DNA from: an uncultured Clostridia bacterium
GTDB lineage: Bacteria; Bacillota; Clostridia; Christensenellales; UBA1242
Direction: 5' to 3'
Assembly (NCBI GenBank): GCA_947584415.1
Contig: CANPWN010000001.1
Location: forward strand, 13,216-77,215
DNA: 64,000 nucleotides
Made by a program: the position numbers and the translations under genes. Below are positions 5,224 through 35,188 of the stretch, piece after piece. Under the pieces are notes generated by a model that saw only the letters and a list, made by a program, of their open reading frames with translations, had not been told where the DNA came from and searched no databases. Numbering within the stretch: position 1 is the stretch's first letter; every line of letters starts with the position of its first letter.

Positions 5224-5889
5224 CTATTTTGATAAATACCAGTCGCGCTCTTCTTGATTTTCTTTGATATATTTGCGCCTAAATTCTTCTGTAGATTTTT
5301 CAACCGACATTTCAGGGTTAAAATAGTCTTGCAATATTTCAAGATTAAAATTTGTCCCGATCTCTTCTCTTTCCTTCATAAAAAATTGCACTATCAAACG
5401 AAATTGATACGCATCAACATTTTTATTGTCTGAAAACAACAGCGAATCAAACAAACAATTAATTTTATTATAGTTCCATTTTTCAAGCAAAACATCATCA
5501 TTGTTTTCTTGGTTTAAAGGGTCAATTTGAAGTTTTATCCCGCTTATGTCCTTAACAATATAGTTTCCAGGGTCAATAATATACACTTGCCCGTTATAGA
5601 TGACATTTGAAGGATTTATATCACGCAAGCCTATTTTAAATTGATTTAATAATTTTAAATCATCTTGCAAAACTTTCATTTCGTCTAAAACATGCCCCAT
5701 TTTTGTTGGTATGTTTTTTAAATATAAAATGTCTTCAGTATTAAGATGAGGAAGCATATAATCCTCTCGAAACAACTTAACCACTTTGCTATTATATTTA
5801 TATACAATACACTCTGAGCCTTTTTCCGATAACAAGCACAATTTGCTTAAGTCTAAAGGTCTGCCATCAATGTTAAAAAGTTCCTTCAT
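5224..5889 (-). CDS. Minimal protein-kinase-like fold protein (about 221 aa), function unknown
   Basis: LRDINPSNVIY resembles the HRDxKxxN catalytic loop, IIDPGNY resembles DFG, VVKLF resembles VAIK and KGSECIVYKY resembles a G-loop. Start chosen at MKELF (5889); the alternative is 5931. Confidence 0.5.
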   Translation of the reverse strand: MKELFNIDGRPLDLSKLCLLSEKGSECIVYKYNSKVVKLFREDYMLPHLNTEDILYLKNIPTKMGHVLDEMKVLQDDLKLLNQFKIGLRDINPSNVIYNGQVYIIDPGNYIVKDISGIKLQIDPLNQENNDDVLLEKWNYNKINCLFDSLLFSDNKNVDAYQFRLIVQFFMKEREEIGTNFNLEILQDYFNPEMSVEKSTEEFRRKYIKENQEERDWYLSK

Positions 5890-9515: not shown

Positions 9516-9725
9516 TTTTATTTTCTCCTTATTTTATTGTTTGCCTCAAGCAAACTTTTGCAAAGTTTCTTTCGGTTGCCGTCGGGCGAAGCCCTTCTTC
9601 GGCAAAGTTAACTTACGCGATTTTATATTGTCTTTGAGAAATTTTTAAAACCCCCTTCGACAACATTGTTTTTTAATTTTTAAACTTCAATCAGTTGTTT
9701 AATGAAGTTTGAATTAAACATTTTA

Positions 9726-9916
9726 ATCCGGAGTCTCACTTTCACGGAGAAGGGCTTTGCCCGGCGGGAAAGTGAGGCGAACCCTTCTCTCGCAGAAAAA
9801 TGCCCAGCGGGGTTTTTCAAGAGGCGAAAGGGGGCTCGTGGGGTCGGAACGAATTTCAGCGGTTAGGAAAACTTGTTTTCCGTGCCCGCGTTAAGAAATT
9901 CTAGTTCCCCCCACAC
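9726..9916. repeat. GC-rich interspersed structured element, copy A (about 191 nt) in the rpsG-fusA spacer
   Basis: Shares its conserved 5' 56 nt (atccggagtctcactttcacggagaagggct...) and 3' hairpin core (gcggttaggaaa..tttccgtgcccgcg) with 34324-34517. It is locally much more GC-rich than the surrounding AT-rich DNA. On the minus strand it begins 3 nt after the rpsG stop codon. Confidence 0.8.
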
Positions 9917-9919
9917 TTT

Positions 9920-11098: not shown

Positions 11099-14000
11099 TT
11101 ACCACGGAGTTTTCGCCTCTGTAAAACCATAAGCTTGCAATCTTGCCAAAATTTCTGCAGGTGTATGCATATTTGGAGTAACCCAACTTTCTATCTTATC
11201 TAATTTTACGATATCTCCAACTATCGCAACTAACGGATGATATGGAAGACCAAGCATAAAATTATCATTATATGCCCATGGCATTGAGTTGCTGTTATTA
11301 AAATCCCAATAGACTTTGCGTGAATTAATAAGGATGGAAATAAAAGTATCTCTATCAGTTGCTCCCACAAGAAATTCACCACCAACATCACCCGGGTCAA
11401 TGCCAAAAAGATAAGTTTCAACAATATCTCCTGTTATACCAGTGTCGCTCGTTGTCGTTGGAAGCAAAGTGTAATAAAATCCGTATGCAAATGAAATCCC
11501 AATGTTTATAGTCGTATTAGCAGTAACCGCTCCAATAAACGCAGAACAACCTTTAATATTTGGAATTGAACTCATCTCATAAATGTCTTGATTCTTTTCA
11601 ATCATAGTGCAACGACCAATGTTAACTTGCCAATTTGTAGCATCAACAATAAAGCCACTTATAAAACCTTCAGTCAAAGCAGAACGTTCACAATAGACAT
11701 TTACTAATGTGATTTGACCATAATACGGAGTTTTTGTAAACACATATCCGCCTATCAATGCACTTGGGGCTTCCCATGTGCTTGTTCCTATACATAAATT
11801 CAAAAAATTAATATTAGAAAGAGTCATTCTGGATGTGGCCCAAATGAAACACGCCATAGGTGCAGCCGTATCAAATTCAGCCACAGTGCCTTGATATGCA
11901 GGAGCATTGTCAATGCAGTTTAAATTGATGATGGAGTGTCCTTGTCCGTCCAATGTGCCACTAAAATATCTGATGGCTCTAAAATCAAATTCTAAAGCAG
12001 TGCAGTCAATGTCATTGTCAAGATAAAATGTCATATCAGAGAAACATTCTGGGCCGTTATAAGAGTAAGAATAATCCGACATTGCTACCAGGCCAGTGTA
12101 ATCAGTGATGTGATACGAGCCGTTAGAGGCTTTTGTTATGCCTGGATAAGAAAGAATTAAATTATCAAACGTTAATGCTTTAACCACCTTACTACTATTA
12201 TCTAGCCTCAAACATGGACGAATACCACAATCCAATGTTTTATTTTTATCACGTAATGCACCATATTCAGTTATTATGCAGGCACGATCATTTACGGAAC
12301 CAAATGAAAGTCCTTCCGAACGAAGCCAATATTCCCCGCCAGCCATCCTAGATGAATTTCGTTCGATTGTGCTAGTTTCTGCTTCACTTGACTGGTCAAC
12401 TTCTCCACCTGTGGCACTATGAGATGCAAGATAATATTTCCCTTCAGGATCGCTCGCTGGACAATATGTGCTGGTCATTTCAGTGTATGACAAAAGCCAA
12501 ACATAATCCTGTGTTTGATAAGTCGTATCATCAAGAAAGTCTCCAGTTGTATTAGTTTTGGAAACAACAAATCCACTATTTAATCCAGCATTCTTATAAA
12601 AAGTATTATTAAGCCAACCTGATATTGAATATTTATCATCTTGCCATGTTACAGAACCCTCACCATCAGAAAAAGGGAATTCTTCTAAAATAGTGTCAGA
12701 TATAACGTCAACTCGCGTTGCTGTTGCAGGGTTCTGTCCATCAATAATCCACCATTTGATTGGTTTTGAATTATATGTGCCAAGTTCTGTGTAATAATAT
12801 ATATGTCCATTTAAGACTTCTGGAGTCCATGTCAATGATGCCTGTTTGACTTCATATTTAAGCGTCAAACATGGACGAATGCCGAGATAAGTTAAATTTC
12901 TTTGATTTAAGGCAGAAAGTCCATATGCAACCCCATTAGACCCCGCAGTATAAATATCGTTTCCTGCCGCTGAACGTAACAGCCAGTTCGTTGTCCCTGT
13001 CCTATAATCAGACTTATATGATGATTCCATAACTGCATAATTGGCAATTGCAAAATCACTCGGAGAGGCCGTTCTGGAGCCAAATTGTGCTAAAGCTGTG
13101 GCTTCATGGTCGTTGTAATATCCTCCAGAACTTCTATGCGAAGATAGATAATATGTTGTATTGCCTTTAGGACTATATTTGTTTAACTCATCATACGACA
13201 TAAGATAAACATAGTCTGATGTGTTTGCTCCACTGCCATCAGAAGTGCTACTTGATGTGTTGTTTTTGACTGTTTCATTCTTTATCACAGATGTCTTGTA
13301 TGACGAAAGCCCAGAGTCTGTAAGAAATGTGCCATTTAACCAAGTGCGAACATTGGAACTACTCCATAAATTATTTGTTCCCGTTGAAAATGGAATATTC
13401 GCCGCAAGTGCAACATCTGAGATTACCCTTATCTCCTTTGTTCCAGAAACTGTGTTTGGATTTGTTCCATCAATTATCCACCATTTGATTGGCTCAACTT
13501 TAAACCATTTCGTTGCACCAGTTGAACCAACAGATGTCCCATTTTTAAAAGTGTAAGATGTGTTATATACCGTTTGACTTCCTGAAACATATTTTTGCCC
13601 AGAAAGGCTATATTCCGTCCATGTTTTGCTACCCACAGTGTATGTTTTTCCCGTTTTGGATGTAGGCGTTGAACCAGAATAATACATTTGAGGATAAGTG
13701 CCAAGTTCGGTGTAATAATATGTATTGCCGTTTAATGTTTCACTTTTCCATGTTATGTTTGATGTTGTTGCCGCCTCACCAACATCTGAGATTGTGGATG
13801 GCTCAGAAATATTGTTTAAAGGAATTGAAATTTGCGGGAAACAAAATAATGACAAAACAAATGCCATGAACAAATATGAAAATGAATGTCTCGTTTTTGA
13901 ATAGATGTTCTTCACATCCATTAGTATAGGTTTTTTTGATATTTTTAGCAAATATTTTTCGACATTTTGTCGAAATTTGCTTTTCTTTTTCTCCTTATTT

Positions 14001-14122
14001 TGTGGACAACTTTTAGTTAAGCAGTAAGGTTGCCCCCCCCCCGGTGACATTTTGTTACAAAAAGTTTTTTCATTTTCATTTTTTCCTTTTTGTGGATAAA
14101 CTTCTGTTATTAGTATAGCCAA
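11099..14122 (-). CDS. Large secreted protein: two DUF6273-like domains plus a C-terminal FxGxLDGQGHxI-type beta-helix domain (start codon ambiguous, see poly-G leader)
   Basis: Maximal ORF is 1007 aa. The signal-peptide-like segment YLFMAFVLSLFCFPQISIP follows the ATG at 13921. Two units of PIKWWIIDG...WLN.TF...WLLRS...GIRPCLTL are present. The C-terminal FSGTLDGQGHSIINL motif is shared with the 32879-34078 protein. Confidence 0.8.
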   Translation of the reverse strand: MAILITEVYPQKGKNENEKTFCNKMSPGGGQPYCLTKSCPQNKEKKKSKFRQNVEKYLLKISKKPILMDVKNIYSKTRHSFSYLFMAFVLSLFCFPQISIPLNNISEPSTISDVGEAATTSNITWKSETLNGNTYYYTELGTYPQMYYSGSTPTSKTGKTYTVGSKTWTEYSLSGQKYVSGSQTVYNTSYTFKNGTSVGSTGATKWFKVEPIKWWIIDGTNPNTVSGTKEIRVISDVALAANIPFSTGTNNLWSSSNVRTWLNGTFLTDSGLSSYKTSVIKNETVKNNTSSSTSDGSGANTSDYVYLMSYDELNKYSPKGNTTYYLSSHRSSGGYYNDHEATALAQFGSRTASPSDFAIANYAVMESSYKSDYRTGTTNWLLRSAAGNDIYTAGSNGVAYGLSALNQRNLTYLGIRPCLTLKYEVKQASLTWTPEVLNGHIYYYTELGTYNSKPIKWWIIDGQNPATATRVDVISDTILEEFPFSDGEGSVTWQDDKYSISGWLNNTFYKNAGLNSGFVVSKTNTTGDFLDDTTYQTQDYVWLLSYTEMTSTYCPASDPEGKYYLASHSATGGEVDQSSEAETSTIERNSSRMAGGEYWLRSEGLSFGSVNDRACIITEYGALRDKNKTLDCGIRPCLRLDNSSKVVKALTFDNLILSYPGITKASNGSYHITDYTGLVAMSDYSYSYNGPECFSDMTFYLDNDIDCTALEFDFRAIRYFSGTLDGQGHSIINLNCIDNAPAYQGTVAEFDTAAPMACFIWATSRMTLSNINFLNLCIGTSTWEAPSALIGGYVFTKTPYYGQITLVNVYCERSALTEGFISGFIVDATNWQVNIGRCTMIEKNQDIYEMSSIPNIKGCSAFIGAVTANTTINIGISFAYGFYYTLLPTTTSDTGITGDIVETYLFGIDPGDVGGEFLVGATDRDTFISILINSRKVYWDFNNSNSMPWAYNDNFMLGLPYHPLVAIVGDIVKLDKIESWVTPNMHTPAEILARLQAYGFTEAKTPW
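14033..14042 (-). repeat. Homopolymeric G10 tract (C10 on plus strand) in the 5' leader/N-terminal region of the 1007-aa gene
   Basis: Counted directly: 14033-14042 are all C. The tract lies 37 nt downstream of the RBS+ATG (14079). Confidence 0.9.
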
Positions 14123-25025: not shown

Positions 25026-26015
25026 TCAATTTCCTCCTTTCATATCCTCAAGCTCATCTGCAAGCAGTTTGAGCGCTGCCGAGACGCCGCTGTAATCCAT
25101 GCGCTGTGGCCCAAGCACCCCAACTGAGAGTTCCACTGAGCCAACTTTGATTGGAAGTTTGACCAGCGACACATCATCCTCATTTTCAGCAACCGAAACA
25201 ACAAGTTCGTCGCTGTTGCCCGTTTCCATAACTTCAATAAGTTCGTCTTCATTGTCAAGCACTGCCATGATGTGTTTTGCTTTTTCAATCTCCCCGCTTT
25301 CCAAAAGTTTGACCGTTCCGCTGCGCTGCACATCCAAAAATTTGCGCTTATTAAATTTCTTTAAGCCTTTGACAAGATAGTCCACTATCTTCTGAAAAGA
25401 CGCAATTTCATCCGTAAGCTTTCCTTCTTCAAATTGCTCGGTCATCTCTTTAAGAGTTTTGCCCACAAAATGTTTTTTAAAAAATCTTGCTGCATCATCA
25501 CACTCACGCTTTGTCGCTGATAGGTTAAGCCTTTCATTTATATATCCTGCTCCAGTGCCAATAAGCACCAAAACTTCTTGGCTTAAAAGCGGAATAATTT
25601 GAAAGTCCTGCAAAACCAAGTTTTCAACTCCGCTTGCCATGACAACTGTCGGATAATTTGTTGCCTGGCCTATTGCTTTGGCAATTTGCGAAATAAGGTC
25701 GGAAAGGCTGTTCGTTTTCTGCTGAATGAGTTTGCGCACTTTTTCGAGGTCCTTGTTTGTCGCCTTCATGCCGGAGAGCATTGTTTCAACATAATATCTG
25801 TAACCCTCCGCCGTTGGAACTCTGCCACCCGAGGTGTGAAGTTGTCTAAGATACCCCATTGCCTCCAAAGTGTTAAGTTCACTCCTTAGCGTTGCCGTTG
25901 AGCAGTCAAGTGACGCCAAGTTTTTAAGCCCTCCACTTGTTATGGGAGAGCATGAAGAGATATAATCTTCAATTGCCACCTGCAAAATCTGTTGTTTTCT
26001 CTCAGACAGACGCAC
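25026..26015 (-). CDS. hrcA: Heat-inducible transcription repressor HrcA
   Basis: GTG start with AAGGAGG RBS; the N-terminal wHTH is typical of HrcA; CIRCE lies upstream. Confidence 0.93.
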   Translation of the reverse strand: MRLSERKQQILQVAIEDYISSCSPITSGGLKNLASLDCSTATLRSELNTLEAMGYLRQLHTSGGRVPTAEGYRYYVETMLSGMKATNKDLEKVRKLIQQKTNSLSDLISQIAKAIGQATNYPTVVMASGVENLVLQDFQIIPLLSQEVLVLIGTGAGYINERLNLSATKRECDDAARFFKKHFVGKTLKEMTEQFEEGKLTDEIASFQKIVDYLVKGLKKFNKRKFLDVQRSGTVKLLESGEIEKAKHIMAVLDNEDELIEVMETGNSDELVVSVAENEDDVSLVKLPIKVGSVELSVGVLGPQRMDYSGVSAALKLLADELEDMKGGN

Positions 26016-26030
26016 TTTGCCTCCTTATTG

Positions 26031-26057
26031 CTAGCACTCTCATTAAAAGACTGCTAG
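26031..26057 (-). promoter_or_regulatory. CIRCE operator (HrcA binding site)
   Basis: Minus strand CTAGCAGTC-N9-GAGTGCTAG versus consensus TTAGCACTC-N9-GAGTGCTAA (3 mismatches). It lies between the -10 and the RBS of hrcA. Confidence 0.85.
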
Positions 26058-26061
26058 CAGT

Positions 26062-26090
26062 ATTATATGCACTTTAAAAAAATAAGTCAA
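26062..26090 (-). promoter_or_regulatory. Sigma-A promoter of the hrcA-grpE-dnaK operon
   Basis: TTGACT-17 nt-TATAAT on the minus strand, immediately upstream of CIRCE. Confidence 0.8.
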
Positions 26091-26190
26091 CAAAAATTGT
26101 CACTTTTTTTGGAATTTTTTGAAATTTTTTGTCCTTGACATATTTGATGACTTATTAATTATTTAATATATTATAAATTATAAACAAAAT

Positions 26191-26216
26191 AAAAGCAGGT
26201 TTTGAGCCTGCTTTTA
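26191..26216 (-). terminator. Terminator downstream of the 70-aa gene
   Basis: Stem agcagg/cctgct followed by a T-run on the minus strand. Confidence 0.6.
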
Positions 26217-26274
26217 AAATATTAAAAACCCTTCGAAAACATATTCGAGTGGTCTTTTTTGCTAAATTTTCCCT

Positions 26275-26487
26275 CTATCTTGGCAAAAGGTCTGGGTTGC
26301 CATCCTGTGGATGAGGAAACTTTGGCTCAACAATCGGAGCATAATTTTCAAGGTCGCATTCAGGATGCGCGCCATCGTTACAGCCTTCATATTTAGGATT
26401 TTTGACCGGCCTTTTCACGTCCTTGCAATCTGCCGCATAGACATCCTTAAAATCAGGGTCAAGTTTTGAGCCTTGTTTGTAATACAT
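26275..26487 (-). CDS. Hypothetical small protein (70 aa)
   Basis: RBS GAGGTG lies 6 nt before the ATG at 26487. Upstream promoter TTGACA-17-TATATA. No recognised motif. Confidence 0.55.
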   Translation of the reverse strand: MYYKQGSKLDPDFKDVYAADCKDVKRPVKNPKYEGCNDGAHPECDLENYAPIVEPKFPHPQDGNPDLLPR

Positions 26488-26542
26488 AATTTCACCTCTC
26501 AAAAATTATATATCACGCAAAAAAGGCTTTGTCAAGAACTTT

Positions 26543-27733
26543 TTAAATTTTTTTTCTTAAAATGTCGCCTTTTTTTAATTTATATGGGCAAGGCACAAAA
26601 AAAGTCATTTCTGCAACATTTGCTTTGTCAATTTTGTTGCCATCCACATCTGTCATATCGGACAAAACAAAAGTCTTGTTATGCACTTCTTTGTTCGGCG
26701 AAAGCACTTCCACTTCATCTCCGTTTTTAAGATAGTTGCGCTGGCTGACCTTAATCACTCCATCTCCGCCCCCTTCAACAACTCCGACAAACTCATGCGT
26801 CTGCACCGGCGAAGAGGACTCGCGAAACTGCCTGTCATTTTCATCAAAATAAAATCCTGTGGTAAAGCGGCGGTGAGAGGTTTTTTCAAGTTCTCTCACA
26901 AACTCACTTCCTGCTTTTTTTGGCAACATGTCAAGTGCCGTGCGATAAGCGTTGACAGTGCAAGCGACATAATAGGCGCTTTTCATCCTGCCCTCAATTT
27001 TAAGTGATTGGACTCCGGCATCTTCGAGCTCTTTAAGATGCTCAATCATGCACAAATCTTTGGAGTTTAAGATGTAAGAGCCATGTTCGTCCTCTTCAAT
27101 CTCCATTTCATCATCACGGCTGACCTCTCGAATTTGATATTTCCACCTGCAAGCCTGCACGCACTCACCACGGTTTGCGCCGCGCCCCGTCAGATAGTCG
27201 CTGATAAGACATCTGCCGGAATAGGACATGCACATTGCCCCATGAACGAAACACTCAATCTCAACTCTGTCCTTTAGTGCGTGAGCAATTTTTGAAATCT
27301 CTTGCAAATTAAGTTCTCTTGCAAGCACAATTCTTTTGACGCCCATATCTGCAAGAAACATAGCTGTTTGAAGATTTGTGACATTTGCTTGTGTGGACAC
27401 ATGAACATTTAAAGAAGGAAAATTTTTGCGCACATAACTTATAATGCCAAGGTCAGAGATGATAAGTCCATCCACATTTGCATCTTGAAGAGCGGAAAGA
27501 TAATCATCAAGTCCGTCAAAATCTTTGTCTTTTGCCAAAATATTGACTGTGACATACACCTTTTTGCCCTTTTTATGTGCAAAAAGGCAGGCTTTTTTAA
27601 TTTCCGGCAAAGTGAAATTGCCAGCAAAAGCCCTCAGGCCAAAATTTTGTCCTGACAAATAAACAGCATCAGCACCAAACAAAAGTGCCGTTTCAAATTT
27701 TTCATAATTCCCTGCGGGTGCAAGAAGTTCCAT
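26543..27733 (-). CDS. Peptidase U32 family protein
   Basis: MELLAPAGN N-terminus and the E.FVHGAMC.SYSGRC.S motif typical of U32 (collagenase-like / RNA hydroxylation) proteins. Confidence 0.85.
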   Translation of the reverse strand: MELLAPAGNYEKFETALLFGADAVYLSGQNFGLRAFAGNFTLPEIKKACLFAHKKGKKVYVTVNILAKDKDFDGLDDYLSALQDANVDGLIISDLGIISYVRKNFPSLNVHVSTQANVTNLQTAMFLADMGVKRIVLARELNLQEISKIAHALKDRVEIECFVHGAMCMSYSGRCLISDYLTGRGANRGECVQACRWKYQIREVSRDDEMEIEEDEHGSYILNSKDLCMIEHLKELEDAGVQSLKIEGRMKSAYYVACTVNAYRTALDMLPKKAGSEFVRELEKTSHRRFTTGFYFDENDRQFRESSSPVQTHEFVGVVEGGGDGVIKVSQRNYLKNGDEVEVLSPNKEVHNKTFVLSDMTDVDGNKIDKANVAEMTFFVPCPYKLKKGDILRKKI

Positions 27734-32878: not shown

Positions 32879-34078
32879 TTAATTAACTTGTCCTGCCCAA
32901 TAAAAGTGCCTAAGATGTGGCTGTCCGTCTGCCCCTGTAAACCATTTGGATGGAGTGAAACTGGATTCGATGGCCTCGCCATTGACATAGACACCTTGAT
33001 AATTACACCAATAATAGCTTGGAAAATATTCACCACCTTCAAAAAAAAGCCCTCCATAAGCCAGACAGTTGAATGCACAATCATAAAAAGTAATGTTATA
33101 ATCATGTGTATAACTGAAAAGACAATAGCTACTCCCATTACCCTTATTTATGTAAAATTCACATCCTGTACACGTAAAACTGGAGAATGCGGCAACCTCT
33201 AACAACTGACATAACCACAAATAATTTACATCAATTAAAACATTATTCAAAATGACATCTGCAAACCCCTCGCCGTCATATGTATCAATAATTAAACACA
33301 TACCATCCGCTATAATTACTGAGTCTGTCATGTAGATCTCAGAACGACCATAATTATCTGTATAAGTGGTTCCTACCAAGGTATCACAAATCGCTTCACG
33401 ATTAATAAAATTTAAATCACTTATAATCAATTTGCCATGCAAATTTGCACAAAGATTGCCGCATTCTTTAATTTTTATATGTGAAATGCGGCACATATCA
33501 AATGCGGAACATATGAGAGGAGCACTTATTCCTTCAATAGTAATATTTTGTAAAGTAAAATCACGCACAGAGTCGAACAAGTAATAGCCATCATATGTAA
33601 TAGTATGCCCTTGCCCATCAAAAATACCTTTTATATATTCTGAACTGATAAGTGTTGGTTCGTAGCCAGTCAAATCAAGGTTATCGTCAAGAAGATATTT
33701 ATAATCACTATAAAAAGTCACTTCAGGATTAGCAAGAGCCTCTTGCAAAAAAAGATAGCCATCAATTGAGTTTATGTGAATACTTACACATGATGAAATA
33801 TAAGTCTCATCATATCCTTTCCAAATTCCACTTCCATCATCCTCATAATAAGGCACCATATCTTCAAATTCTGTATATTCATCCGTTACAGCAGTGGCTT
33901 CAGTCGGCAAAGCGGTGACATCAGTGGTTGGAAGAGCATTCAACGGAAGGCAAAGAAGAGCAAAAATAAAAGCCAAGGCGGTTGAAAAAATTATTTTCAA
34001 AAGCCCCGGCTGTTTTGAAAAATGTGGATAATTTTTAGTTAGGCAGTAAGGCTGCCCCCCCCCCCCGGTGGGTAACAA
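32879..34078 (-). CDS. Secreted beta-helix protein (FDGQGHTI motif family); start ambiguous, see poly-G leader
   Basis: The track ORF starts at a TTG. The hydrophobic signal-like segment is KIIFSTALAFIFALLCLPLNA. GIFDGQGHTITYDG plus Cys/aromatic-rich beta-helix-like repeats, ending ..GQPHLRHFYWAGQVN. Confidence 0.75.
   Translation of the reverse strand: MLPTGGGGQPYCLTKNYPHFSKQPGLLKIIFSTALAFIFALLCLPLNALPTTDVTALPTEATAVTDEYTEFEDMVPYYEDDGSGIWKGYDETYISSCVSIHINSIDGYLFLQEALANPEVTFYSDYKYLLDDNLDLTGYEPTLISSEYIKGIFDGQGHTITYDGYYLFDSVRDFTLQNITIEGISAPLICSAFDMCRISHIKIKECGNLCANLHGKLIISDLNFINREAICDTLVGTTYTDNYGRSEIYMTDSVIIADGMCLIIDTYDGEGFADVILNNVLIDVNYLWLCQLLEVAAFSSFTCTGCEFYINKGNGSSYCLFSYTHDYNITFYDCAFNCLAYGGLFFEGGEYFPSYYWCNYQGVYVNGEAIESSFTPSKWFTGADGQPHLRHFYWAGQVN
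34055..34066 (-). repeat. Homopolymeric G12 tract (C12 on plus strand) in the 5' leader of the 399-aa gene
   Basis: Counted directly: 34055-34066 are all C. The tract lies 22 nt downstream of GAGGAaaaaATG (ATG at 34088). Confidence 0.9.
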
Positions 34079-34170
34079 AATGTTTCATTTTTTCCTCGCT
34101 TGTATTTTGTCTATGTGGATAACTTACAAAGGTATTATAACCGAAAATTAGCGAATAACCAAACAAAATA

Positions 34171-34203
34171 ACAAAAAATCCCAAAAATGTTGACATTTTT
34201 GGG
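34171..34203 (-). terminator. Terminator ending the 222-aa gene / GC-element transcript
   Basis: Minus strand cccaaaaatg-tcaa-catttttggg followed by attttttgttatttt. Confidence 0.6.
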
Positions 34204-34318
34204 AAAACGAGCAGTGTTGCCCGTTTTTTTGTTGCACCCGACAAGTTTTTTACTTGGAGACCAATTTTATGGGGGAAGGGCTTTGCCCGACCAAAAATTC
34301 TAGTTGCACCAGCGATTT
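34204..34318. repeat. Two internally deleted copies (C2 34204-34255, C1 34262-34318) of the GC-rich element
   Basis: On the minus strand C2 reads aaaacttgtcgggtgcaacaaaaaaacgggca..ttttccc, matching the copy B 5' hairpin. C1 reads ggtgcaactagaattt..gggcaaagcccttc, joining 5' and 3' motifs of copy A. Confidence 0.65.
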
Positions 34319-34323
34319 TAAGC

Positions 34324-34517
34324 ATCCGGAGTCTCACTTTCACGGAGAAGGGCTCTGTCCGGCGGAAAAGTGAGACGAACACCTCTACCACGTCGCAAGG
34401 CGCAGGTATCAAGTCTTGCAGTGGTGCGAAGGGGGGCCTGTGGGGGGAAACAAAAAAAAGCGGTTAGGAAACAATGTTTCCGTGCCCGCGTTTTCTTTTT
34501 TTGTTGCACCCCACAAG
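34324..34517. repeat. GC-rich interspersed structured element, copy B (about 194 nt)
   Basis: Its 5' 56 nt are about 90 percent identical to 9726-9781, and its 3' hairpin core is shared with copy A. On the minus strand it starts 3 nt after the stop of the 222-aa gene. Confidence 0.8.
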
Positions 34518-34519
34518 TT

Positions 34520-35188
34520 TTAGAACCTCGGTTGATTTATTGGCCCTGTTGCCGTTGGATAGAGCGGCATTTCAAAGAGTCCTGGGCAAGCACTTGATGA
34601 CGGTGCTGCCTGGCATGGTGGGATAACAGGATAACCATAAGATGGCACAAGCACATCAACGAGTGCTGTCACCCTCAAAATTACTTGTAAGCAGCCGGTT
34701 ACAGTGAAGGTGTTTTCAGCCGTGTAAGAGCCAATTTCACTTGAGAACACAGCGCTTGCAGAAATGTTGATTGGAGTGACAGAAGGTTGAGGAACAAAAA
34801 GAATTACGCTTTTTGAAACGGTGATTGTGCTTGTTCCTGTGCCAAGAACGCCGTTTGCATCACGATAAGTCACCACAATTGGGATGGTCACATTTGCACT
34901 CACATTAGCATAGTTTGGGCTGGAGTCAATTCTGTCCACAACAAGGTCAGATATGGTCACTGGACCATTTGTTGCGTTTGCAGCAGAAACATATGTGAGT
35001 GGCAAGGCTGGAGAAGCCGGAGTTAAATCAGTGACTGCAAGCACAATGCCAGTTTCGGTGCTTTGTGACACGCAGGCGTCAAAAACCTTGGTTGTTTCAA
35101 TCAAGATTTTTTCACAAATCCCATTGAGCGGGTTGCCCATAATAGGCCCTGGACGATTAGGATTTGTATTATTGATGTAAAAAGACAT
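34520..35188 (-). CDS. 222-aa beta-rich Thr/Ser/Val/Pro-rich protein, candidate spore-surface/coat component
   Basis: Strong RBS (ataGGAGGtaggaaaATG), no signal peptide, and a Pro-rich Cys-containing tail (PPCQAAPSSSACPGLF). A sigma-K-like promoter lies upstream. Confidence 0.6.
   Translation of the reverse strand: MSFYINNTNPNRPGPIMGNPLNGICEKILIETTKVFDACVSQSTETGIVLAVTDLTPASPALPLTYVSAANATNGPVTISDLVVDRIDSSPNYANVSANVTIPIVVTYRDANGVLGTGTSTITVSKSVILFVPQPSVTPINISASAVFSSEIGSYTAENTFTVTGCLQVILRVTALVDVLVPSYGYPVIPPCQAAPSSSACPGLFEMPLYPTATGPINQPRF

Follow-up and report, generated by a model that had tools for sequence, protein, structure and literature searches.

The 3' untranslated region (UTR) of a 222-aa gene in an uncultured Clostridia genome carries a tandem array of a hairpin-rich non-coding repeat, with one intact and two decayed units, and the repeat belongs to a previously undescribed family that is present in several uncultured gut Clostridia. 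The family has multiple copies and a fold backed by covariation, the array is a gain, alleles of the element turn over in the rpsG-fusA spacer and no coding partner neighbours the copies. We read the family as non-coding, modular, non-autonomous interspersed structured repeats of the BOX/ERIC/REP kind that decay by hairpin deletion, and the region as an insertion hot spot that holds three generations of the repeat; we give this reading about even odds (roughly 50%).

The array downstream of the 222-aa gene

The window, i.e. the whole stretch of 64 000 nucleotides that was analysed, is a chromosomal piece of low GC content (∼40%). Its minus strand holds nearly all of the genes and the cumulative GC skew is monotonic; the relatives of the window, which encode SpoIVA, are named as Ca. 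Caccovivens or Clostridiales metagenome-assembled genomes. The array lies between the stop codon of the 222-aa gene and the start region of a 399-aa gene and makes up the 3' UTR of the former, with the intact copy B, the decayed units C1 and C2 and a terminator in that order. The features are as follows.

34520-35188, minus strand: 222-aa gene, conserved in the clade (567 homologues), without a Pfam family
34520-34522, minus strand: stop codon of the 222-aa gene
34324-34519, minus strand: copy B, a full-length element (covariance-model match of 191.9 bits, E = 8e-50)
34437-34517, minus strand: H1 of B, a long irregular hairpin with the conserved internal loop AACGCGGGCACG ... CTAACCGCT
34380-34436, minus strand: H2 of B, with the base stem CCCCUU paired with a purine-rich segment
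34331-34376, minus strand: H3 of B, which includes a GGAC-AGA-GCCC hairpin
34315-34330, minus strand: tail of B
34263-34319, minus strand: C1, a decayed unit (assigned by the shuffle test and the match to L031)
34201-34251, minus strand: C2, a decayed unit (26 nt at 96% identity to B, E = 6e-6)
34170-34204, minus strand: AT-rich intrinsic-terminator-like hairpin UCCCAAAAAUGU-CAAC-AUUUUUGGGA with a U-run, which closes the 3' UTR

The initial annotation had described one full and two internally deleted copies here, and this description is upheld: B is a full paralogue of a second copy in the window (copy A, below), and C1 and C2 each score above 1000 of 1000 shuffled sequences. That annotation bounded B at 34324-34517 and started it 3 nt after the TAA of the 222-aa gene; the distance is in fact 2 nt, and the covariance-model match spans 34312-34522 on the minus strand. 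The purine-rich segment of H2 reads GAGGUG in B versus AAGGGG in the other members.

In C1 an A/B-like 5' end (AAAATCGCTGGTGCAACTAGAATTT) is fused straight to an intact H3-type hairpin, GAATTTTTGG-TCGGGCAAAGCCCTTCCC-CCATAAAATT; the interior of H1 and the whole of H2 are missing, in agreement with the direct junction of a 5' and a 3' motif claimed for this unit. C1 bears an exact GAAGGGCTTTGCCCG, a motif with four matches in the window against 0.10 expected, and its 11-nt segment AACTAGAATTT is identical to A. Local alignment of C1 to A/B scores 31 (dinucleotide shuffles, 16.0 ± 2.4; none of 1000 reaches 31), with a score of only 15 on the opposite strand. The hairpin stem retained in C1 is unlike that of B, and this part of C1 matches the element of L031, a relative described below (51 nt, 80%). 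C1 is thus no deletion product of B, and it is a member of a different subfamily.

C2 begins with 22-26 nt that are 95-96% identical to the stop-proximal end of B (the 5' strand of H1 of B), including the 21-mer TTGTTGCACCCSACAAGTTTT, which occurs twice in the window against 0.01 expected. This B-like start is followed by a core remnant, CGGGCAAC, and then by TTTTCCC; the 3' part (34204-34224) forms a small hairpin that precedes UUUU. The local alignment score of C2 to A/B is 39 (dinucleotide shuffles, 19.3 ± 3.5; none of 1000 reaches 39), against only 25 on the opposite strand. For both units the similarity thus exceeds that of shuffled sequence on the same strand only. The 20-nt motif that had been assigned to the start of every unit is shared by B and C2, but not by C1, which has just GTTGCACC.

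The closing AT-rich hairpin is the sole terminator-like site on the minus strand within 33800-34800, in line with its original assignment; the terminator search places the hairpin and its T-run at 34204-34179. The three ORFs predicted in the array (34035-34412, 34318-34509 and 34370-34597) had been treated as artefacts, rightly in our analysis: a protein-coding reading was rejected since they overlap the covarying non-coding structure and have no significant Pfam match, the one weak match (E = 0.04) lying below the curated cut-off.

A promoter-like module lies close to the array at 33990-34135 on the minus strand (homopolymer at ∼34053-34066) and again, on the same strand, at 13990-14100. It consists of TTATCCACA boxes around a G12 or G10 homopolymer tract and is found upstream of the genes for two large surface proteins of 399 and 1007 residues (the latter DUF6273). 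All three exact matches of TTATCCACA in the window fall within these two regions (0.55 expected). In relatives the same spot is taken by (GGCT)4 or (GAGC)5, flanked by good -35 and -10 hexamers, and from its sequence the tract looks like a site of phase variation. The long ORF calls begin with N-termini (MLPTGGGGQPYCLTK / MSPGGGQPYCLTK) that result from reading through this non-coding module.

Copy A and the common fold

The second full-length copy in the window, copy A, occupies the intercistronic spacer between rpsG and fusA, which also contains a solitary hairpin.

9726-9919, minus strand: copy A, a full-length paralogue of B (covariance-model match of 183.8 bits)
9838-9916, minus strand: H1 of A
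9782-9834, minus strand: H2 of A
9733-9778, minus strand: H3 of A
9576-9605, plus strand: solitary H3-type hairpin, GCCG-AAGAAGGGCTTCGCCCGA-CGGC in minus-strand reading (33 nt at 82%; covariance match of 21.6 bits at model positions 151-180)

The solitary hairpin is ∼130 nt from A in the same spacer and is inverted relative to it, and together with H3 of A it forms a long-range inverted repeat within the spacer. Between the two, upstream of fusA, is a promoter-like site, TTTAAA-18-TAAAAT (9649-9620, minus strand).

The proposed alignment of the array to 9726-9916 gives 83% mean column identity between B and A, with long identical blocks; a 29-mer (0 expected) and a 16-mer (0.03 expected) each occur twice in the window, once in A and once in B. 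The rpsG-fusA spacers of relatives were retrieved through their S7 homologues, and full, diverged homologues of the element fill this spacer in L031/L033, L036, L176/L179 and L182. A, B and these homologues (type-1 members) were aligned into three hairpin domains. H1 has an inner stem, GCGG/CCGC, that covaries to GCUG/CAGC and flanks an asymmetric internal loop (NYAC / UAA), while its tip hairpin is free in sequence and length. H2 is closed by CCCCUU paired with AAGGGG, and H3 has a GGGC-AAA-GCCC hairpin. The full type-1 unit is ∼190 nt long. Nearly all members of the family have the first hairpin with its conserved internal loop (AACGCGGGCACG / CUAACCGCU); the downstream modules vary, and other members, of 190-300 nt, keep H1 and the loop with different or additional modules after them.

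RNAalifold predicts 61 pairs for the type-1 alignment, 38 of them with changes on both sides. Paired cells amount to 85.7%, against 68.4% in shuffles and 41-58% in slid controls, and none of 500 shuffles reaches any of the observed measures. Every full copy is recovered by a covariance model, with E values between 1e-38 and 1e-50; those of the more distant copies lie between 1e-5 and 1e-9. Every helix covaries, a pattern commoner among functional RNAs than among classical miniature inverted-repeat transposable elements (MITEs), and one that counts against our preferred reading of the family as repeats. This covariation, and the conservation of unpaired nucleotides across species, favours the possibility that the element is a functional structured RNA module of 3' UTRs and intercistronic spacers, copied to several highly expressed loci, with C1 and C2 as dead duplicates; such a module could act as a 3'-exonuclease barrier or processing signal, or give rise to a stable small RNA connected with the translation apparatus. 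We consider this explanation possible, at something under one chance in three.

The strand on which the structure would act bears on the same question. The gene-sense strand is the one that is certain to be transcribed, and GNRA (GUAA, GCAA) and UAAC loops are commoner on it than on the opposite strand, a weak lean that would suit a functional RNA. Against this, folding z-scores are equal on both strands and G-U versus A-C counts show no clear strand asymmetry (41 versus 30 on the model alignment), single-sequence folds giving 44 versus 51 G-U pairs. Neither a promoter nor a terminator belonging to the element is conserved, which also argues against the functional-RNA explanation. A small RNA read from the plus strand, with its own terminator formed by a hairpin and U-run on the stop-codon side, was rejected because the U-run is the A-rich sequence that follows the stop codon and is missing in L040, L043 and the type-2 copies.

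Gain of the array and alleles of the rpsG-fusA spacer

In four related lineages the 222-aa gene is followed by a plain terminator only: L006 (91% protein identity), L007-L012 (84%), L190 (81%) and L191 (82%). The array is therefore an insertion, a gain specific to the lineage of the window, and the absence of the element from these lineages argues against the functional-RNA explanation. Together with arrays at two other loci (L041 and L045, below), it supports the original suggestion of repeated insertion or duplication at one site. For B, no pair of empty and filled sites with alignable flanks was obtained, and this weighs against the insertion of a repeat as the explanation.

The rpsG-fusA spacer is itself polymorphic (L031/L033/L034/L036, 10475-10750; L174/L176/L179; L182/L185). 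Over 20 kb, L031, L034 and L036 are collinear at 98-99% identity, and this spacer is their sole structural polymorphism. The break runs from 2 nt after the rpsG stop codon to just before the ribosome-binding site of fusA, and as far as the edges of the spacer the flanks have 0-3 mismatches in every 100 nt. One allele is a 224-nt element and another is a 263-nt variant, in which the differences from the first are fully compensated in the stems; the allele of L176 is a chimera with H1 of one full variant and H2 and H3 of the other. The short allele is a spacer of 87 nt, 72 nt differing from L031, in which the central segment alone is kept; its sequence suggests separate excisions of H1, of part of H2 and of H3. 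Two species that differ by ∼8-10% in fusA have both the long and the short alleles, a trans-specific polymorphism.

The occurrence of full, chimeric and largely deleted alleles in near-identical strains indicates that the locus tolerates loss of the element, which speaks against a functional RNA. It does not speak wholly for insertion of a repeat either: the site is filled in several species and alleles are shared by two of them, and retention or selection fits these observations as well as a hot spot does.

The position of A raises a second explanation, namely that the str operon is autoregulated by S7, or attenuated, through this RNA, of which B would be a stray copy. In at least four species the rpsG-fusA spacer contains A or a homologue, and there is a precedent in the rpsL/fusA leader structures of this operon (PMC2965389); structured rpsG-fusA elements have also been proposed in streptococci and Pelagibacter (PMC2965389), a point that serves the broader functional-RNA explanation too. 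The str-operon leader reading fails because the element also follows unrelated genes (copies stand after the 222-aa gene, rplQ, ychF, PBP1A, GDPD and tRNAs, and in a prophage spacer) and because strains whose S7 protein is identical do without it. No terminator/antiterminator alternative was seen in it. We regard this explanation as very improbable and as already largely refuted by the distribution.

Loci and placement of the family

Metagenome contigs were scanned with the conserved core AACGCGGGCACG-N(6-24)-CTAACCGCT, which gave 12 loci, of which 11 are real; the element is thus not unique to A and B, which would have refuted the initial annotation, but a family found in multiple genomes. 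Loci with distinct settings are listed here.

L041: in another rpsG spacer
L043: after rplQ
L048: after ychF
L044: after the gene for the penicillin-binding protein PBP1A
L046: after GDPD
L047 and L050: each directly after a tRNA-Glu gene
L040 (1-1475): ∼90-290 nt upstream of the mature 5' end of 16S rRNA, on the same strand as the 16S gene
L042: in the 5' UTR of an LRR_5 gene
L049: in a prophage spacer, antisense to both neighbouring genes

One metagenome sample has six copies on four contigs. L045 and L050, at different loci, share 96% identity across 226 nt, their flanks being unrelated and their boundaries sharp; with the absence of the element from an orthologous site, the family has dispersed non-coding copies and presence/absence polymorphism. 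Tandem arrays recur: in L041 a single unit precedes ∼2.5 tandem units of a second type, the beginning of a further copy comes after L045, and L046 contains an internal duplication of a module. Modules are also mixed between copies, as seen in A/B, in the chimera of L176, in L043/L185 with another 3' module and in type-2 members with an extra hairpin, as well as in L046. So far the family is restricted to uncultured gut Clostridia related to Ca. Caccovivens.

Two of these loci have further features. The copy of L042 (∼5735-5760) is directly downstream of a promoter-like site, TTGACA-(G8 tract)-TAAAAT, and upstream of an LRR_5 (BspA-type) gene, and is therefore in a 5' UTR and not a 3' UTR. In L049 (1690-2540) the prophage-adjacent spacer with the element copy also has three occurrences of CGTCGAACATTTGGTTCG and the motifs GCTTAGCCAC/GTGGCTGAGCCAC.

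The copies are placed in a consistent manner. Co-orientation with the adjacent gene or tRNA is seen at ∼12 of 13 loci, copies after protein genes start ∼2-7 nt past the stop codon, and the neighbours are housekeeping genes. Six of the 12 metagenome-contig loci adjoin genes related to translation (16S, rpsG, rplQ, ychF and two tRNA-Glu). Sense placement so close to stop codons or tRNA ends, and this share of translation genes, would both be expected of a functional RNA; as half of the loci from an unbiased scan are translation-related, the neighbourhood could mean function rather than the insertion bias that our repeat reading invokes. We therefore keep the functional-RNA module as the main rival on the strength of the translation-gene enrichment and the complexity of the fold; the L049 copy, antisense to both of its neighbours, stands against it.

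TAAA after a stop codon had been raised as a possible target, and the tendency is there: in a comparison of filled sites, TAAAA is found on both sides of A, B and C1. As a rule it does not hold, since TAAAA is missing at L182 and is not present 5' of the copies after tRNA genes, and the 5' flanks of copies vary (TAAAA, ATA, TTA and CAG). A target-site duplication is suggested by A, B and C1, and its absence elsewhere is a weakness of the repeat reading.

Searches for a known identity or a mobilizing partner

Rfam 15 gave no match at gathering score in the whole window. Over both element regions, at E values of up to 10, only chance-level microRNA or sRNA matches were returned, and six homologue loci searched at E values of up to 0.5 gave rRNA, tRNA and a weak Plastid-ycf2 match over tRNA only. 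BLAST searches of phage and plasmid collections found no match. Five viral scans were completed and nothing real was found; three of the five had no match at all, GCGAARGGGGGCNNGTGGGG matched 12 phage contigs of which none carries the element, and TGGGGTRACACCAAA matched 120 stretches, with the core in none. A scan of genome contigs with ACGGAGAAGGGCTNNGNCCGGCGG matched five Actinobacteria sequences only, which were read as coding sequence and hence as chance; judged by eye, they are probably mannitol dehydrogenase genes. The core sequence retrieved only irrelevant primers from the full-text literature.

No transposase, RAYT, TnpB, IS110 or reverse-transcriptase gene adjoins any copy among the flanking genes listed and the window genes scanned, and we know of no autonomous relative of the family; both facts count against a mobile repeat. 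So does the lack of terminal inverted repeats (TIRs): the 5' end (AGTGTGGGGGGAAC / TGGGGTAACACC) has no similarity to the reverse complement of the 3' end (ATCCGGAGTCTCAC / TCACCCCTTGTGGG).

A reverse-transcriptase gene is present elsewhere in the relatives. In L007-L012 (e.g. L007, 19324-20349) a 341-aa RVT_1 gene lies downstream of a U32 peptidase gene and in some of them is followed by a 634-aa protein with a faint bpMoxR match. The counterpart position in the window (26015-26543) is a 527-nt gap followed by hrcA, and the RVT_1 island is absent. No copy of the element is near the RVT_1 genes of L007-L012, which are unlinked to it.

Two other classes of element were tried and rejected. Integron attC sites have R''/R' cores of the form RYYYAAC ... 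GTTRRRY in a gene-cassette and IntI context; the stem strands of the element, GGNGNCAACCAA / TTGGTTTYCCC, do not fit these cores and its neighbours are core housekeeping genes. Group II (class C) introns have a 5' GUGYG and a domain V with an AGC triad, and insert after a terminator hairpin. In the element GUGUG is found in A alone, there is no domain V-like hairpin and no Rfam intron match, and the element precedes the terminator rather than following it.

A further explanation is a miniature of an RNA-guided transposon that bears a guide RNA, either an IS200/IS605 PATE with a TnpB omega-RNA or an IS110 bridge-RNA remnant, the structured RNA of which would be the scaffold for an enzyme encoded elsewhere in the genome. 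The size of 190-300 nt would fit, as would the lack of TIRs, the orientation-specific insertion, the A/T-rich motif adjoining units, the tandem arrays and the covariation of an RNA-like scaffold. Single-stranded DNA transposons favour the leading-strand gene direction, and the orientation of the copies is that of leading-strand genes in a window with monotonic GC skew. However, there is no TnpA, TnpB, IscB or IS110 gene among the genes examined in the fetched related DNA, Rfam has no match to the element regions even at E values of up to 10, the two ends do not have similar subterminal hairpins and there is no fixed target motif of 4-5 nt. We consider this explanation unlikely, at less than one chance in ten.

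A model for the array and its implications

On our preferred reading of the family as interspersed repeats, units would insert a short distance (a few nucleotides) past a stop codon or the 3' end of a tRNA, in the sense orientation and upstream of the host terminator, a placement that implies their transcription within the RNA of the upstream gene. New units would insert at the stop-proximal A-rich site (TAAAA here), and older units would be shoved downstream and lose whole hairpins by deletion, giving the order B, C1, C2 and terminator. The position of the intact B next to the stop codon, with the decayed units further away, fits repeated insertion at the stop-proximal TAAAA. Copies may also recombine with one another. 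Selection on the whole fold, combined with dispensability at single loci, suggests that the fold serves the propagation of the element itself, through a single-stranded intermediate recognized at the loop. In this model the internal loop of H1 would most likely be the recognition point for a putative trans-acting protein. We infer that mobilization occurs in trans through a single-stranded intermediate (RNA or ssDNA), with the fold kept by selection, and that the host may be affected, for example through protection of 3' ends or a change in read-through.

A bolder proposal, to which we give about one chance in five, is that the element represents a new class: either a selfish structured RNA (promoter-less and retro- or RNA-guided) or a new stable non-coding RNA tied to translation, with the fold and the NYAC/UAA loop as a putative protein-binding site. 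In the selfish version, propagation only in sense within highly transcribed units would explain the position after stop codons, tRNAs and rRNA or ribosomal protein genes.

If the repeat reading is true, uncultured gut Clostridia have a repeat family that behaves like BOX, ERIC and REP, yet has a complex fold maintained by selection, and that is directed to the few nucleotides which, in highly expressed genes, separate the stop codon or tRNA end from the terminator. The rpsG-fusA spacer, in one of the most conserved operons known, would be the sole structurally variable spot among strains of 98-99% identity over the 20 kb compared, and hence a ready strain marker. In metagenome-assembled genomes the family could lead to false ORF predictions and to wrong annotation of 3' UTRs, and it would offer a tractable case in which to study how promoter-less structured elements spread and whether mRNA 3' ends or operon polarity are changed by them.

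Comparison with known systems

With TIR-type MITEs (Correia/NEMIS, RUP and bcr1) the element shares its size range, dispersed copies and presence/absence polymorphism. MITEs of this type (Correia, RUP, bcr1) are defined by terminal inverted repeats and a target-site duplication, which for bcr1 is TTTAT, a sequence that the A/T-rich TAAAA flanking A, B and C1 resembles. The element differs in that it has no TIRs and in that its hairpins covary rather than being conserved on both arms.

REP/BIME sequences and IS200/IS605 PATEs are likewise based on hairpins, have no TIRs, are orientation-specific and form mosaic or tandem arrangements in 3' UTRs. They are mobilized by RAYT or TnpA, some PATEs carry a TnpB omega-RNA, and they can protect mRNA 3' ends. 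REPs are single imperfect palindromes of 20-40 nt with a conserved GTAG-type head, and in PATEs the subterminal hairpins of the two ends match each other and the target is a fixed one of 4-5 nt. In contrast, the element has no GTAG-type head, its end hairpins H1 and H3 are unrelated, it has no fixed 5' target, and no Y1 transposase or TnpB gene was found in any of the fetched DNA.

The element also resembles the leader structures of the str operon in being a structured RNA candidate between rpsG and fusA. The rpsL/fusA leader structures are candidate attenuators or leaders that belong to this one operon (Naville and Gautheret, 2010, PMC2965389); str-operon leader structures are attributed there to Meyer et al. 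(2009, as cited in PMC2965389). Unlike these, the element also has copies behind unrelated genes and behind tRNAs, and some near-identical strains do without it.

BOX elements of S. pneumoniae, and more loosely ERIC/IRU, are small modular intergenic repeats that are structured, co-transcribed and limited to a narrow clade, insert slowly and encode no transposase (Croucher et al., 2011, PMC3049150). The element is like BOX and ERIC in each of these respects: it is non-coding and interspersed, has variable modules, is structured, co-transcribed and clade-narrow, inserts slowly and has no encoded transposase. There is no Rfam or BLAST match to the element, and it probably has no sequence similarity to BOX. 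BOX has complementary terminal modules (boxA/boxC), whereas the element has no terminal inverted repeats; unlike BOX, it folds into three domains in which every helix shows compensatory changes, it contains a conserved internal loop, and it is nearly always placed in sense ∼2-7 nt from a stop codon or tRNA end. On the best-supported reading, the known systems to which the family comes closest in behaviour are pneumococcal BOX and enterobacterial ERIC/REP (PMC3049150).
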